NCBI GenBank assembly: GCA_964291655.2
Contig: OZ219802.1
Location: 1,504,001-1,568,000, forward strand
Reading direction: 5' to 3'
Length of the DNA: 64,000 nucleotides
Origin: Chloroflexota bacterium
GTDB taxonomy: Bacteria > Chloroflexota > UBA11872 > VXOZ01
The notes under the pieces were generated by a model. The model was given only the letters and a program-made list of their open reading frames with translations. It was not told the DNA's origin and did no database searches. The translations under genes were made by a program, and so were the position numbers. Below, one piece after another: positions 18,082-46,018 of the stretch; the first letter of the stretch is position 1; every line of letters starts with the position of its first letter.

Positions 18082-18158
<77 letters not shown>

Positions 18159-42005: not shown

Positions 42006-42485
42006 CTAAGTGGAGTAACGCGGTAGGCCAGCTGAGTTGAGAATGGCCTCTTCCTGCGCGCGCATCTTCGTATAGGCGGCATCTTGGTCATGCGTGTGCC
42101 CAAGCAGATGCAGGAAACCGTGGACGAACAGGTAGGCGAGTTCACGCTCTTCGCTGTGGCCGTATTCTGCCGCCTGGGTCTGCACCCGCGCCAATGAAAT
42201 CGCGATATCCCCCAAGTATTCGCGATTCTCCGGCGGTAGCGCAGGATTGCAACCTGCGTCCGGGGACTGCGCATCCCTGTGGGCAAATGAGAGCACGTCT
42301 GTAGGCTCATCCTTGCCGCGGTAGGTACGGTTGAGTTCCTGCAGGCGCGCGTCGCTCGTTAGCAATACCGTGACTTCGACCGACGCAGCGGTGCCCGTAG
42401 CAACGCGAGCCGCGGTGAACAGACGCTTGAGCAGCGCCGCTATGTCTGGACGTTCTTCCACATCTTCCCAGAGGACTGTCAACAT
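42006..42485 (-). CDS. ybeY: rRNA maturation RNase YbeY
   Basis: LNRTYRGKDEPTDVLSF, LGDIAIS and HGFLHLLGHTH. Confidence 0.93.
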   Translation of the reverse strand: MLTVLWEDVEERPDIAALLKRLFTAARVATGTAASVEVTVLLTSDARLQELNRTYRGKDEPTDVLSFAHRDAQSPDAGCNPALPPENREYLGDIAISLARVQTQAAEYGHSEERELAYLFVHGFLHLLGHTHDQDAAYTKMRAQEEAILNSAGLPRYST

Positions 42486-42562
42486 CGCACGTACATTCAT
42501 CCATCGGAGAAAGTGGTAGAGATACTGATGAAGTGTCCCCTTCTCGGGAAAGTGCCCGCGTA

Positions 42563-43297
42563 TTAGTTCCGCGTTGGTCGCGGTTCCCTTAAGAGGCGCC
42601 ACCGCAACCGCAGCACCTCTCGCATGGCGCGCAGGATAACGCGCAGGCTGCCGCCGGTATTCTCGCCGGCGTGGCGTGGCAAGTGGCTGATCGAAACTTC
42701 GCCGACACCGAAACCGGCGCGCTTGGCTTGGACAAGAAACTCGGTGTTGAAGACCGCGCCTGCCGCCTTGATGTCAAGCGTCTCCACCACCTCACGCCGA
42801 AAGATCTTGGAGCCGCAGTCCACATCATGCACCACAAAGCCAAAGAGAATTCGATTGAGTACATTCCAAAGCAGTGCGAAAAACAGGCGGTGAGAAGGGT
42901 CTTGGCGCTGCACGCGGTGGCCGACCACCACGTCGTAGGTATCCAGTGCCTTGAGCATGGGCACAATATCGGCCGTGCGATACTGTGTGTCGGCGTCGCG
43001 CCAGCCGACGATCTCCCATTGTGCAGCCTTGAGGCCCGCCCAAATCGCGGAACCATAGCCGCGAATAGGTTGGTGGATCAGCCGGACGCGGGCATTCGCA
43101 GATTGAATCTGTCGTACGATCTCCACGGTATTGTCGGTACTGTCGTTGTCGACGACAATGACCTCATAGTCGTGCGCGACCCGCTGTAGGGTTTGCACAC
43201 AGTCGCCTATTGTAGCCGCAATATTGTCTGCCTCGTTCAGTGCAGGCAGCACGAGGGAGACGGTCAGGGAAGGTTGCTGCGGAGTCTTCATTGACAT
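42563..43297 (-). CDS. GT2 family glycosyltransferase (DPM synthase-like)
   Basis: LPALNE, VDNDSTD, GYG, DAD and DVDCG.K. Confidence 0.9.
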   Translation of the reverse strand: MSMKTPQQPSLTVSLVLPALNEADNIAATIGDCVQTLQRVAHDYEVIVVDNDSTDNTVEIVRQIQSANARVRLIHQPIRGYGSAIWAGLKAAQWEIVGWRDADTQYRTADIVPMLKALDTYDVVVGHRVQRQDPSHRLFFALLWNVLNRILFGFVVHDVDCGSKIFRREVVETLDIKAAGAVFNTEFLVQAKRAGFGVGEVSISHLPRHAGENTGGSLRVILRAMREVLRLRWRLLREPRPTRN

Positions 43298-43902
43298 ATG
43301 CGGGCGTTGCTTCGCTTCCTTTTCTTAGTAGGCACCGAGATTTCTTGATGCGACACGTTAAGCCATCGCTGTCACGCTCGTTGGCAGTAGACCCATCTCA
43401 TCCGACAACACCGGTTGGCGTCCAACTGAACGTCTCTCCGTAATGGCGACGTTTTGCGCACGTTGCCGGTTTGCAATGATTATCTTGCGCTTTAACGACC
43501 GTCAGGCCTTTTTTGCGCCCAGAACCCAGGGTGCGATCAACTCGCAGCGCGGCAGGAGGTCTTAAGTACAGTATAAGCCGAACTCGGCCTCGTGACACAG
43601 GAGAAACGCCCCGTCCCTCAAAATGCCGCCAAATCGACACTCATCTTGGCACCGCGAGGCGCCTGAGCTTGCAGGTCCTGGCATATCAGGCCGGCCACGA
43701 CAGACTCCGGTCGCATGCCGGCGTGCCTCATGACGCCCGTGAAAACGACAAGGAATGCAAAATTCTGCCGTGGGCCGCTTGGCAGCATCAGTCGTCTCAC
43801 ACGAAGCAAGACTGAGTTATTCGCGGTACATGCACCTCTTGCAAGCCCGCGCCTGCTGCAAGACTCACCTCGCGTCGATGACTGGCCCCGGGGATTAAAC
43901 CG

Positions 43903-43932
43903 ACACCGGCCCTTGGGGGAAAGGGCCGGTGT
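43903..43932 (-). other. 12-bp perfect hairpin with a C-rich loop (possible sRNA 3' hairpin or terminator)
   Basis: Minus strand ACACCGGCCCTT-TCCCCC-AAGGGCCGGTGT followed by CGGTTTAAT. Confidence 0.65.
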
Positions 43933-44108
43933 GGGGTGGTGCGAACAGGAGGAGCATTCAGGAGGCAAGCAAGTTTAGTGAACCATCTGGACATGAATAT
44001 CTCGGAATCCGTAGTTGGCACTGGGCGTGGGTGAGTGGCAGTACACCTGGAGCGACGTTACCGTTCCGAGAAGAGAAGGGTGCAGTATGTGTGCGTCCAC
44101 TTAACGAC

Positions 44109-44145
44109 AAAAGAGCTTCCTCGGCTTTGCCAGCCTAAAGCTCTT
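44109..44145 (-). terminator. Intrinsic terminator forming the riboswitch expression platform
   Basis: Minus strand AAGAGCTTTAGGCTGGCAAAGCCGAGGAAGCTCTTTT, overlapping the aptamer 3' tail. Confidence 0.7.
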
Positions 44146-44258
44146 CCTATCGCCTGCGAGGTTAGCTGTCGGGTTAGGGTGGAAAGAGTCACCCTCCGCA
44201 CGACTGCGGTTCACCCCAATTGCCGGGTCCCCCGCTCCATTTAAGGATTTGGCGCATT
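44141..44258 (-). ncRNA. Cyclic di-AMP (ydaO/yuaA) riboswitch
   Basis: Minus strand GCGCCAAATCC...GGAGCGGGGGACCC...TGGGGTGAACC...AGGGTGACTCTTTCCACCCTAACCCGACAGCTAACCTCGCAGGC matches the ydaO hallmark motifs. Confidence 0.92.
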
Positions 44259-44272
44259 ACTACGGTAAATTC

Positions 44273-44301
44273 ACCGTACCACAACAGTTTTTGGTACGCA
44301 A
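44273..44301 (-). promoter_or_regulatory. Putative sigma70 promoter for the riboswitch transcript
   Basis: Minus strand TTGCGT-N17-TACGGT with an extended TG, just upstream of the aptamer. Confidence 0.5.
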
Positions 44302-44419
44302 GAGTTTGAACGCATAATCTTCAGATTTTCCGTGTGCAATTCTGTGATAGAACAGCCGGCAGAGTCAAGACCGCAGAAACCAATTGCCGAGTCTTCACAG
44401 ATGCAACGATTCTACGCGG

Positions 44420-46018
44420 CTAAGAATCCAAGTAGACTCGATTCAGCCATGGTCGCGCCGTAGCGGAGAGTTGTACGTCACGCACCCAAGGCTTGATGAG
44501 TACACACTCCTTGCCGTGCCACAGCGGTGTCACGGGCGCATCCAACGCAATGCGCTGTTCGATTTCCCCGATTGTCGCTCTTCTCCGGCCTTTGTCTTGC
44601 TCTCCCCGTGCTTGGAGCAGCAGTGCGTCAACTTCCGGGCTGCGGTAGCCACTGTAATTCGTCAGACTTGTCGAGCGGAAGAGCGGATCGAGGAGAGCTT
44701 GCGGATCAGGATAGTCGGCTTGCCGCGTGAATAGGAAGAGCTGATAGGGATTCTCACGGCTTTCAAGGTTGCCGACGAATGTGGCCCAGGGCTCGCGCTG
44801 GATGCGGACTCGTATGCCGAGATGCTCCTGAAACATATTGATCAACGCCGTCATGGTAGGCGGCGTCGGGCCGCGCGTGCCCGGTACAGTAAACGTGACC
44901 TCCGGCAGGTTGCTGGCATCGCGATACCGGGAATCCGCCAGCGCCTGCCTCGCCTTGAAAATGTCAAAGTCCACGGTTTCAGCGTCGCCGTTGTGCGTCA
45001 GCGAAGGTGGGAGGAGCGAAGTTGCCTTGCCCACGGTATTGGAGAATACTTGCTCAACGATGGCCGCACGGTCAATGGCAAAGGCAAATGCCTGACGCAC
45101 GCCCTCGTCATCGAAGGGCGGAATGCGGTTGTTCATGGCGAGAAACGTCATCTCGAGAGCATCGTGGATAACCAAGTCTTTATGTAAAGGATTATTCCTA
45201 TCAAGCACTGCCGCAATGTCGTTCGCGTCAACGTACAGAATGTCCAGGGAACCGTCAGCATAGCCGCTCAGGGATTGCGCACCAACCCTACCGGTGATCT
45301 CAATCCGATCCAGCAGCGGCTCGAATCCATAGAAGCCTTCACTCCGTGCCAAGGTCAATAATTCGCCGGGAACCCAATCTACAACAGCAAACGGGCCGCT
45401 GCCCTGCGGCGATGCACCGTTCCCTAACCCAGAGGGCGCCTGGACATACGTGGTCGGGTGTGTGAGTTTTGTGGGGAATGTAAGATCGGGCTCGATGAGG
45501 TCTATTTCGAGCGTGCGCGCATTGACGGCGCGGACACCGCTTATGTCCTGGGCGACTTCATTGCGGTACTGAGCAAAACCCACAATATTGCCGAGGAATA
45601 GTCGCGCCCGCGGCGACTCGAATCGAGGATCAAGGAGGTACTCCCACGTATCCTTGATGTGAGCGGCAACGAGTTGCTCTCCATCGTGAAAGCGGAGACC
45701 CGGACGCAAAGGAAATTGATACGTGCGGCTATCTGCTGACATCGACCAACGCTGCGCTAAGTCAGGGATTGGATCCCCTTCAGCATTCAGCGCAACCAGT
45801 CCGCTGTACACGTGGGCCGCTAACTGGGCGTTGAGATCGGATTGCAGCGTCGCCGGGTCAAGCTCGTTCGGCAGTGGCATTTGGATGCGCAATGTCCCGC
45901 CGGACTTATCGTCACCACAGCCGGTGAGCAAAGGTGTCAGAAACCCCGCAAGAATGCTTGCGAGCACCGTGCGGCGTTGCACTAAACGATTCTCCTTGCA
46001 GGAGCGCATCGCGGCCAC
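44420..46018 (-). CDS. Peptide ABC transporter substrate-binding lipoprotein (OppA/SBP family 5)
   Basis: Lipobox LTGC, LDP, GLV...PDLA..W, FHDG, GSGPF, VRQAFAFAIDR and ADYPDP. The true start may be slightly downstream. Confidence 0.9.
   Translation of the reverse strand: MAAMRSCKENRLVQRRTVLASILAGFLTPLLTGCGDDKSGGTLRIQMPLPNELDPATLQSDLNAQLAAHVYSGLVALNAEGDPIPDLAQRWSMSADSRTYQFPLRPGLRFHDGEQLVAAHIKDTWEYLLDPRFESPRARLFLGNIVGFAQYRNEVAQDISGVRAVNARTLEIDLIEPDLTFPTKLTHPTTYVQAPSGLGNGASPQGSGPFAVVDWVPGELLTLARSEGFYGFEPLLDRIEITGRVGAQSLSGYADGSLDILYVDANDIAAVLDRNNPLHKDLVIHDALEMTFLAMNNRIPPFDDEGVRQAFAFAIDRAAIVEQVFSNTVGKATSLLPPSLTHNGDAETVDFDIFKARQALADSRYRDASNLPEVTFTVPGTRGPTPPTMTALINMFQEHLGIRVRIQREPWATFVGNLESRENPYQLFLFTRQADYPDPQALLDPLFRSTSLTNYSGYRSPEVDALLLQARGEQDKGRRRATIGEIEQRIALDAPVTPLWHGKECVLIKPWVRDVQLSATARPWLNRVYLDS

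Follow-up and report, generated by a model that had tools for sequence, protein, structure and literature searches.

A candidate c-di-AMP-gated noncoding RNA with a conserved C-rich 3' module in a genus of Chloroflexota

In EutX of Enterococcus faecalis and Rli55 of Listeria monocytogenes, a B12 riboswitch forms the 5' part of a small RNA (sRNA) that is made at full length only without the ligand (PMC8237595), and SreA and SreB are terminated S-adenosylmethionine (SAM) riboswitches that act in trans (PMC13501541). Riboswitches for cyclic di-AMP (c-di-AMP) are described as preceding genes for K+ and amino-acid transport, osmoprotection and the cell wall (PMC7266159). Here, we analyze a c-di-AMP riboswitch of the ydaO/yuaA class on the minus strand of a 64,000-nt stretch of a Chloroflexota genome (GenBank assembly GCA_964291655.2, contig OZ219802.1, positions 1,504,001 to 1,568,000; the whole stretch is called the window, and positions are given in its numbering). 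The aptamer is followed by an intrinsic terminator (T1), a variable spacer, a C-rich module and a terminal hairpin (T2). We propose that these parts form one unit which may produce a c-di-AMP-gated noncoding RNA, and which may descend from a riboswitch-controlled mRNA still found in a sister family of the same class.

The likeness of this unit to EutX and Rli55 lies in a riboswitch and a terminator in the 5' part, a 3' module that would be transcribed on read-through and the lack of an encoded protein (PMC8237595, PMC13501541). It differs in its ligand, which is adenosylcobalamin (AdoCbl)/B12 in those RNAs, in having an unstructured C-rich strand in place of a dual hairpin for an ANTAR regulator, and in its probable derivation from an mRNA that still bears an open reading frame (ORF) in relatives. 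With SreA and SreB the unit would share the use of a riboswitch transcript as a trans regulator; however, the terminated riboswitch is itself the regulator there, while the candidate effector here is located past the terminator and would be transcribed upon read-through only. The aptamer family and the intrinsic terminator are those of canonical ydaO/yuaA riboswitches, whereas this genus has no adjacent controlled coding sequence (CDS), which the sister family does have, and the regulated product would be an RNA. In the sister family the module lies between a stop codon and a covarying terminator, which is typical of sRNAs derived from 3' untranslated regions (3'UTRs) (PMC13501541). Unlike in that class, the parent ORF is gone in the genus, the whole transcript would be noncoding and the 5' riboswitch is the sole control seen. 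Shine-Dalgarno regions are the pairing sites of known C-rich sRNAs, among them 6C RNA of Actinobacteria and RsaE of Firmicutes. As in these, C-rich motifs complementary to GGAGG-type sites adjoin the terminator of the unit; in contrast to them, the motifs are found in an unstructured strand rather than in the loops of stable hairpins, and the score against the 6C family (RF01066) is below threshold.

Searches of the full-text literature, which did not cover the supplementary tables of riboswitch surveys, where orphans may be listed, turned up no noncoding RNA gated by a c-di-AMP riboswitch. The available part of a 2026 review of signal-responsive sRNAs treats SAM and B12 cases only and never mentions c-di-AMP (PMC13501541). 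New here are the ligand class, the module and the unusual origin, for a kind of riboswitch-gated sRNA that is already known.

Conservation and architecture of the unit

A 1121-nt intergenic query was searched against 41 related genomes, the own genome included, and it matched 15 of the 16 other genomes of the genus. While the match extends over the whole 1121 nt in the two nearest relatives, the other 13 matches are confined to query positions 119-547 (window 44302..43874), i.e., from the promoter to just past T2. Within this segment, alignments of the 16 genomes show a conserved promoter, a near-invariant aptamer, T1, and a near-invariant module and T2. The mean pairwise identity is 0.83 for T1 (27 of 52 columns invariant) and falls to 0.47 in the spacer (4/142), which keeps a length of 127-140 nt and has no consensus structure in this alignment. 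The preliminary description of this DNA, which was made from the sequence alone, had tied its proposal to the conservation of the C-rich stretch and the terminal hairpin. These two parts reach the highest values within the unit, with a mean identity of 0.91 for both the module (30/39 columns invariant, with an invariant stretch of ~31 nt) and T2 (27/39). Conservation ends at T2, beyond which the sequences no longer align. Each of the 15 other genus members with the unit has one RF00379 match, which is the aptamer of the unit. In the genome without the element (G012), the upstream solute-binding gene has no orthologue either (best 27% identity), and a true loss would look the same as an assembly gap in this case. 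Taken together, it is highly probable that the locus is a conserved riboswitch-headed noncoding unit.

The aptamer matches RF00379 with 101.5 bits (gathering score 38, E 5.7e-23) over model positions 1-134 of 134. It is the sole copy in the 3.47-Mb genome, which encodes one diadenylate cyclase domain (PF02457, E 2.8e-38). T1 folds with -22.7 kcal/mol (z-score -4.2; equaled by 0 of 200 shuffles) into a stem AAGAGCUU../..AAGCUCUU with an inner stem GGCU/AGCC, followed by UUUUGUCGUU, and is part of the 16-genome consensus structure, in which its changes are one-sided only. Upstream of the aptamer, the -10 hexamer TACGGT (44278..44273) is immediately preceded by TGG, and transcription would start near 44266. 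The TTGC of the -35 element and the TGGTA of the extended -10 element are kept in the alignment. This promoter is absent from the output of a generic promoter scan whose rule demanded A at position 2, T at position 6 and at least 9 of 12 matches. No ORF within the unit is conserved in the 16 genomes, and the next gene, encoding a GT2 glycosyltransferase, starts at 43297, 839 nt beyond the 3' end of the aptamer. A promoter of this kind, a canonical ydaO aptamer with an overlapping terminator, the lack of a convincing CDS after it and a distance of more than 800 nt to the next clear gene had all been read from the sequence in the preliminary description, and our analysis bears out each of these points.

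Three C-rich motifs claimed for the module are likewise present, at GCCTCCTG (43966..43959), CTCCTCCT (43954..43947) and CACCACCCC (43941..43933). The 46-nt C-rich stretch is unstructured when folded alone, with a minimum free energy of -0.9 kcal/mol and a z-score of +0.9. A weak hairpin with CTCCTCCT as its loop had been suggested; it is not stable in the single sequence, while RNAalifold gives a consensus stem of 6 bp around CUCCUCC. The perfect 12-bp hairpin with a TCCCCC loop was confirmed in T2 (43932..43903; -26.3 kcal/mol, z-score -4.8, 0/200 shuffles), and its tail CGGUUUAA is a weak U tail. The 3' end of the organism's own 16S rRNA reads GGAUCACCUCCUUUCU, ending in ..CACCUCCUUUCU. As the module contains CCUCC and CUCCUCC like this 16S 3' end, it is complementary to GGAGG-type ribosome-binding sites.

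The suggested likeness to 6C was not upheld, as RF01066 scored 21.6 bits, short of its gathering score of 47 and with E 3.2, which is chance. In the search for a known RNA family of the 3' part, Rfam scans by gathering score and by E-value returned RF00379 alone, with no 'cuckoo' or other family above chance; a eukaryotic long noncoding RNA match in the E-value scan (E 4.7) was dismissed. An exact 22-mer of the module has 15 matches in genome_contigs, and 14 of these are Chloroflexota metagenome-assembled genomes of the own genus. The 15th, in a contig labelled Cyclobacteriaceae, falls within an ORF of 770 aa that has no aptamer close by, and was taken as chance. A scan of metagenome_contigs for the module gave one near-identical match.

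The features and their neighbours are listed in Table 1. The solute-binding gene upstream is syntenic in 16/16 loci and ends ~465 nt before the module core in all of them. The gene after the unit is a GT2 gene in nine loci (192-670 nt past the module core), and in the remaining seven a GT4 gene is interposed. Between T2 and the GT2 gene of the own genome, a gap of ~600 nt (43300-43894) is devoid of convincing ORFs and shows conservation in the two nearest relatives only, and tblastn of 43250..43960 for a GT4 remnant gave nothing below E 0.5. Elsewhere in the window, a tRNA gene is found at 18082-18155 on the plus strand (RF00005, 72.7 bits). The assembly has two contigs (0.83 and 2.64 Mb), each with an rRNA operon (near 299462 and near 231818, respectively), and the 16S 3' ends of the two operons are identical. 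Since the smaller contig also bears rpsM and the diadenylate cyclase gene, it appears to belong to the chromosome or to be a second essential replicon.

Table 1. Parts of the riboswitch-headed unit and adjoining genes, in window coordinates.
Feature	Position	Strand	Details
Promoter	44301..44273	minus	-35 TTGCGT 44301..44296, 17 nt, extended -10 TGG-TACGGT 44281..44273
c-di-AMP (ydaO/yuaA) aptamer	44264..44136	minus	Rfam RF00379
Intrinsic terminator T1, expression platform	44143..44103	minus	hairpin and UUUUGUCGUU
Variable noncoding spacer, ~131 nt	44102..43969	minus	length kept at 127-140 nt in the genus
C-rich, G-poor, unstructured module, ~36 nt	43968..43933	minus	holds GCCUCCUG, CUCCUCCU, CACCACCCC
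Terminal hairpin T2, predicted 3' end of the unit	43932..43895	minus	12 bp, loop UCCCCC, tail CGGUUUAA
Family-5 solute-binding protein gene, upstream, outside the unit	46018..44420	minus	Pfam SBP_bac_5, E 2.6e-68
GT2 glycosyltransferase gene, downstream	43297..42563	minus	Pfam Glycos_transf_2
ybeY, after the GT2 gene	42602..42006	minus	Pfam YbeY

Related loci in a sister family and across the class

Among 98 genomes surveyed for the class, RF00379 was found in 42. An invariant 24-nt CU-rich module, CTCTCCTTCCTTCTCCTCACTCGC, occurs exactly once in each of 11 of the 14 sister-family genomes, always behind an RF00379 aptamer. All 11 copies of the 24-mer, from 8 genera, agree with 0 mismatches, and the 84 other genomes of the class gave no match even when 3 mismatches were allowed. 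Beyond the class, a sample of 401 genomes of the phylum gave four matches at 3 mismatches against six for the reversed control, which is chance. Nine of the 11 genomes have an ORF of 74-95 aa in the interval from T1 to the module, with a Shine-Dalgarno site and a start codon that is ATG or GTG. The encoded protein has invariant Cys50, Cys53, His66 and His72, with Pfam C2H2 matches that are sub-threshold only (best E 0.0035). The 24-mer sits 5-23 nt past the stop codon, with an insert of ~85 nt in one genome, and is followed by a GC-rich hairpin and a U tail. This hairpin occurs with three stem sequences. Compensatory changes affect 7 of its 14 pairs, and pairing holds in 99.3% of cells against at most 55% in slid controls; as judged by covariation, it is a real terminator. 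In the remaining two genomes the ORF is gone and a short spacer is left, with the riboswitch, the module and the terminator kept.

The genus and the sister family share a layout in which a riboswitch and T1 are followed by a pyrimidine- or C-rich strand with CUCCUC and UCGC and then by a hairpin with a C-rich loop. As conservation in the genus stops at T2 and T2 matches in position the covarying, U-tailed terminator of the sister family, the unit probably ends at this hairpin. The preliminary description had held that a normal CDS in relatives, of which the locus would be a remnant, would speak against its idea. Such a CDS is indeed found in the sister family, in the form of the small Cys2His2 ORF, and is not found within the genus. 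This refines the idea rather than overturning it, because the riboswitch, the module and the terminator outlasted the loss of the ORF. No homologue of the small protein was found in the own genome, where the best tblastn match (E 0.002) crosses a stop codon and the best six-frame hmmsearch match has E 0.053.

The Cys2His2 small proteins have 93 relatives in a large protein collection, all of them unnamed, and those labelled with an organism are from Chloroflexota. These Chloroflexota-only proteins of 74-120 aa have an invariant C..C..H..H pattern and a C-terminus HPVLR(M/W)D, and they stand behind a c-di-AMP riboswitch in all ten loci inspected. A further family (G017) has a homologue of the small protein behind the riboswitch and no CU-rich module.

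Other contexts of the aptamer were seen in the class. Another genus has a single RF00379 aptamer in 9/9 genomes, and the six loci inspected precede a sigma-70-like gene; five of them show the conserved sigma region 'VRLYLHEIGRYALLTADQEVEL..', and the sixth, which has a longer leader, was assigned by its ORF start alone. To our knowledge, riboswitches of this class are rarely associated with sigma factor genes. In four loci of other families, the aptamer lies directly before an ORF of ~150 aa with the motif '..IVH..DA..V...L...G...TR......GGF...GN..F..G', and the products of these ORFs presumably resemble PII-like c-di-AMP receptor proteins.

Proposed mechanism and competing explanations

We lean, with modest confidence, towards a c-di-AMP-gated noncoding RNA that is bounded by a terminator and works through its C-rich 3' module, probably in trans. 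The promoter, aptamer, T1, spacer, module and T2 would form a single small transcription unit on the minus strand. Riboswitches of the ydaO class mostly terminate transcription upon ligand binding. For this reason, and by analogy with the class, high c-di-AMP is expected to stop transcription at T1 and leave a riboswitch RNA of ~160 nt, while low c-di-AMP would permit read-through and release a noncoding RNA of ~370 nt ending at T2. The conserved single-stranded C-rich stretch before T2 is the likely working part, because it is the sole conserved part outside the switch and because this layout is usual for the seed of 3'UTR-derived or terminator-adjacent sRNAs. The module would most likely act in trans, either through base pairs to G-rich ribosome-binding regions in mRNAs or through an RNA-binding protein that it holds. 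Termination at T2, the action in trans and the kind of target are steps that we infer.

As to its origin, the ancestor may have been an mRNA under riboswitch control that encoded a small Cys2His2 protein and bore a conserved C/U-rich element in the 3'UTR before the terminator. The ORF would have been lost in the genus and at least once more elsewhere, with the promoter, the aptamer, T1, the 3' element and T2 remaining under purifying selection. From the comparison of the loci, the unit is most likely an ORF-less descendant of such an mRNA and not an RNA gene from the outset.

Contigs of sponge metatranscriptomes agree with transcription of the unit. Six RNA runs match a small part of the stretch, and four of these, from three studies, were examined; DNA data sets with shares of 0.41-1.00 did not enter the evidence. 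A 330-nt contig (43926..44255, depth 33) crosses T1 and extends by far more than 31 letters to either side; it has 21 differences and thus comes from a related strain. A 162-nt contig spans 44110..44262, i.e., the aptamer and T1. In the four runs, contigs fall on the unit only, and the uncovered parts (43000..43870 and 44273..45000) are no evidence of silence. The contig ends (43926/43941, 44110/44118 and 44255/44262) do not coincide and are not transcript ends. Together, the contigs lend moderate support to the existence of both the terminated and the read-through RNAs.

Several points weigh against the interpretation as a c-di-AMP-gated trans-acting RNA. The contigs give no strand, ends or level and could come from DNA carry-over, and the two contigs of 178 nt, both spanning 43941..44118, are perhaps one data set filed twice. 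The minimum-energy fold of the aptamer with T1 contains no antiterminator, so that the direction of the switch is taken from the class and not from this sequence. A pairing of CUCUUUCC in the aptamer with GGAAGAG of T1 had been spotted by eye as an antiterminator, but it is absent from the fold and was kept as an idea only. None of 39 pairs shows a double compensatory change within the genus. With its weak U tail, T2 possibly allows some read-through toward the glycosyltransferase genes. The homology between the genus and the sister family is also weak. A covariance model of the sister module and terminator, built from 11 sequences, found the right place in 7 of 16 genus sources with only one match below E 0.01 (22.2 bits), and the window scored 10.6 bits (E 0.85); the case for common descent therefore lies mainly in position and layout.

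The search for targets belongs to the same side. The preliminary description had proposed a trans-acting sRNA directed against Shine-Dalgarno sites, and neither duplex scans nor comparative site tests revealed a conserved target. In the genome-wide duplex scan with the module, the best non-self duplex reached -47 kcal/mol, against -45 to -52 kcal/mol for reversed and shuffled controls. At start regions the mean of -20.7 was no better than the controls (-18.0 and -19.9), and the rRNA operons fitted no better than shuffles. The Shine-Dalgarno site of rpsM has a perfect 12-nt match, ACAGGAGGAGCA, and was rejected, as its four sister-family counterparts misfit the module of that family. A 13-bp match at an ACC-deaminase-like gene recurs in just one of 14 orthologous start regions, that of the nearest relative, and the third-best site stands before a gene found in 6 of the 17 genomes of the genus only. 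Additionally, no Hfq was found. In a separate observation, a short dispersed repeat of ~35-75 nt lies upstream of the ACC-deaminase-like gene (second contig ~1947374-1947447, outside the window) and in many other places. It has tens of matches per genus genome and 46 in the own genome, many of them 95-100% identical across species, and may be a small mobile or repetitive extragenic palindrome (REP)-like element.

Two alternatives concern the spacer. The preliminary description had allowed for a small-peptide gene, in which the spacer would encode a fast-evolving peptide of 41-50 aa under riboswitch control. The required frames do exist, as a 41-codon GTG ORF (44100..43975) and a 50-codon TTG ORF (44110..43958), and the 41-codon frame is whole with an ATG in three other genomes. 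However, this frame is whole in 5/16 genomes, with a shorter version in one further, and a 4-nt deletion shifts it in three genomes, while a frame ending in the CCUGA of the module is open in 11/16 without a conserved start. No Shine-Dalgarno site precedes the spacer ORF starts in the 16 genomes, the peptides are unlike between groups, and the lowest conservation of the unit falls on the would-be coding region; we consider a peptide gene very improbable. The locus might instead be a decaying remnant of the small-protein gene, with the module and T2 kept only for 3'-end formation or stability, or by a constraint on the opposite strand. This would agree with the existence of ORF-bearing relatives, with the freely drifting spacer and with a stop-codon-like column (TAA/TGA/TAG) aligned ~15 nt before the module. 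As a relic of an ORF, this column and its 'ACTAAAC' flank are suggestive only, and the relic was rejected when the sister-family protein profile gave negative scores in all three-frame translations of the 16 spacers. Yet 16 species would not have retained the promoter, aptamer, T1, module and T2 of a useless transcript while the spacer diverged to 47% identity, and the loss of the ORF elsewhere kept the same parts. Opposite-strand ORFs over the module, for their part, have inconsistent ends and lie otherwise in unconserved DNA. Decay is improbable as well, if somewhat less so than a peptide gene.

Two further explanations accept a functional noncoding RNA and differ in what it does. The stretch from the riboswitch to T2 might be a long leader acting in cis as a two-step attenuator of the downstream GT4 or GT2-ybeY genes, with T2 as a second regulated stop. 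Glycosyltransferases are the next same-strand genes in 16/16 loci, the U tail of T2 is weak in the genus, and cell-wall remodelling genes are a described association of the riboswitch class (PMC7266159). Against this, the interval between T2 and the next start ranges from ~130 to ~600 nt across the genus and is unconserved in sequence, the neighbour itself differs between genomes, and a promoter-like site (43598..43570) lies between T2 and the GT2 gene. The counterpart of T2 in the sister family, moreover, ends the mRNA of the small protein and has a good U tail, and we regard a leader in cis as unlikely. A low probability is also given to capture of a protein in trans, in which the C/U-rich strand beside the hairpin would titrate an RNA-binding protein (KH-type, cold-shock-type, S1 or Rho), as EutX and Rli55 sequester EutV (PMC8237595). 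A sponge of this kind fits the absence of an outstanding complementary target, and it is as compatible as base pairing with the length of the invariant stretches, which is ~31 nt in this genus and, over 8 genera, 24 nt in the sister family. Rho-binding sites have a G-poor make-up, and the sister-family module is likewise without G over 22 nt. Against capture, no Hfq was found, and the CCUCC-type motifs match anti-Shine-Dalgarno letters, which makes base pairing the simpler explanation.

Meaning for c-di-AMP signalling in Chloroflexota

If the unit does act as a c-di-AMP-gated sRNA, it would be the first of its kind, and a second-messenger riboswitch would join the regulatory RNAs gated by B12 and SAM. 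Tentatively, and as a possibility to which we give less credence than to the gated RNA as such, the entire riboswitch arm of c-di-AMP signalling in this genus might run through one RNA, a former mRNA without its small zinc-finger ORF, whose anti-Shine-Dalgarno-like strand shuts or opens mRNAs in trans. The unit would then offer an entry point to RNA regulation in these uncultured, sponge-metagenome-associated Chloroflexota, in which Hfq was not detected. It also flags the Chloroflexota-only Cys2His2 small-protein family as part of the c-di-AMP regulon. Furthermore, the loci would form a natural series from a dual-function stage, with an mRNA and a 3'UTR module, to ORF-less stages that arose more than once. 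Such a series of ORF-bearing and ORF-less loci can show how a 3'UTR element outlives its gene and becomes a free-standing RNA gene.

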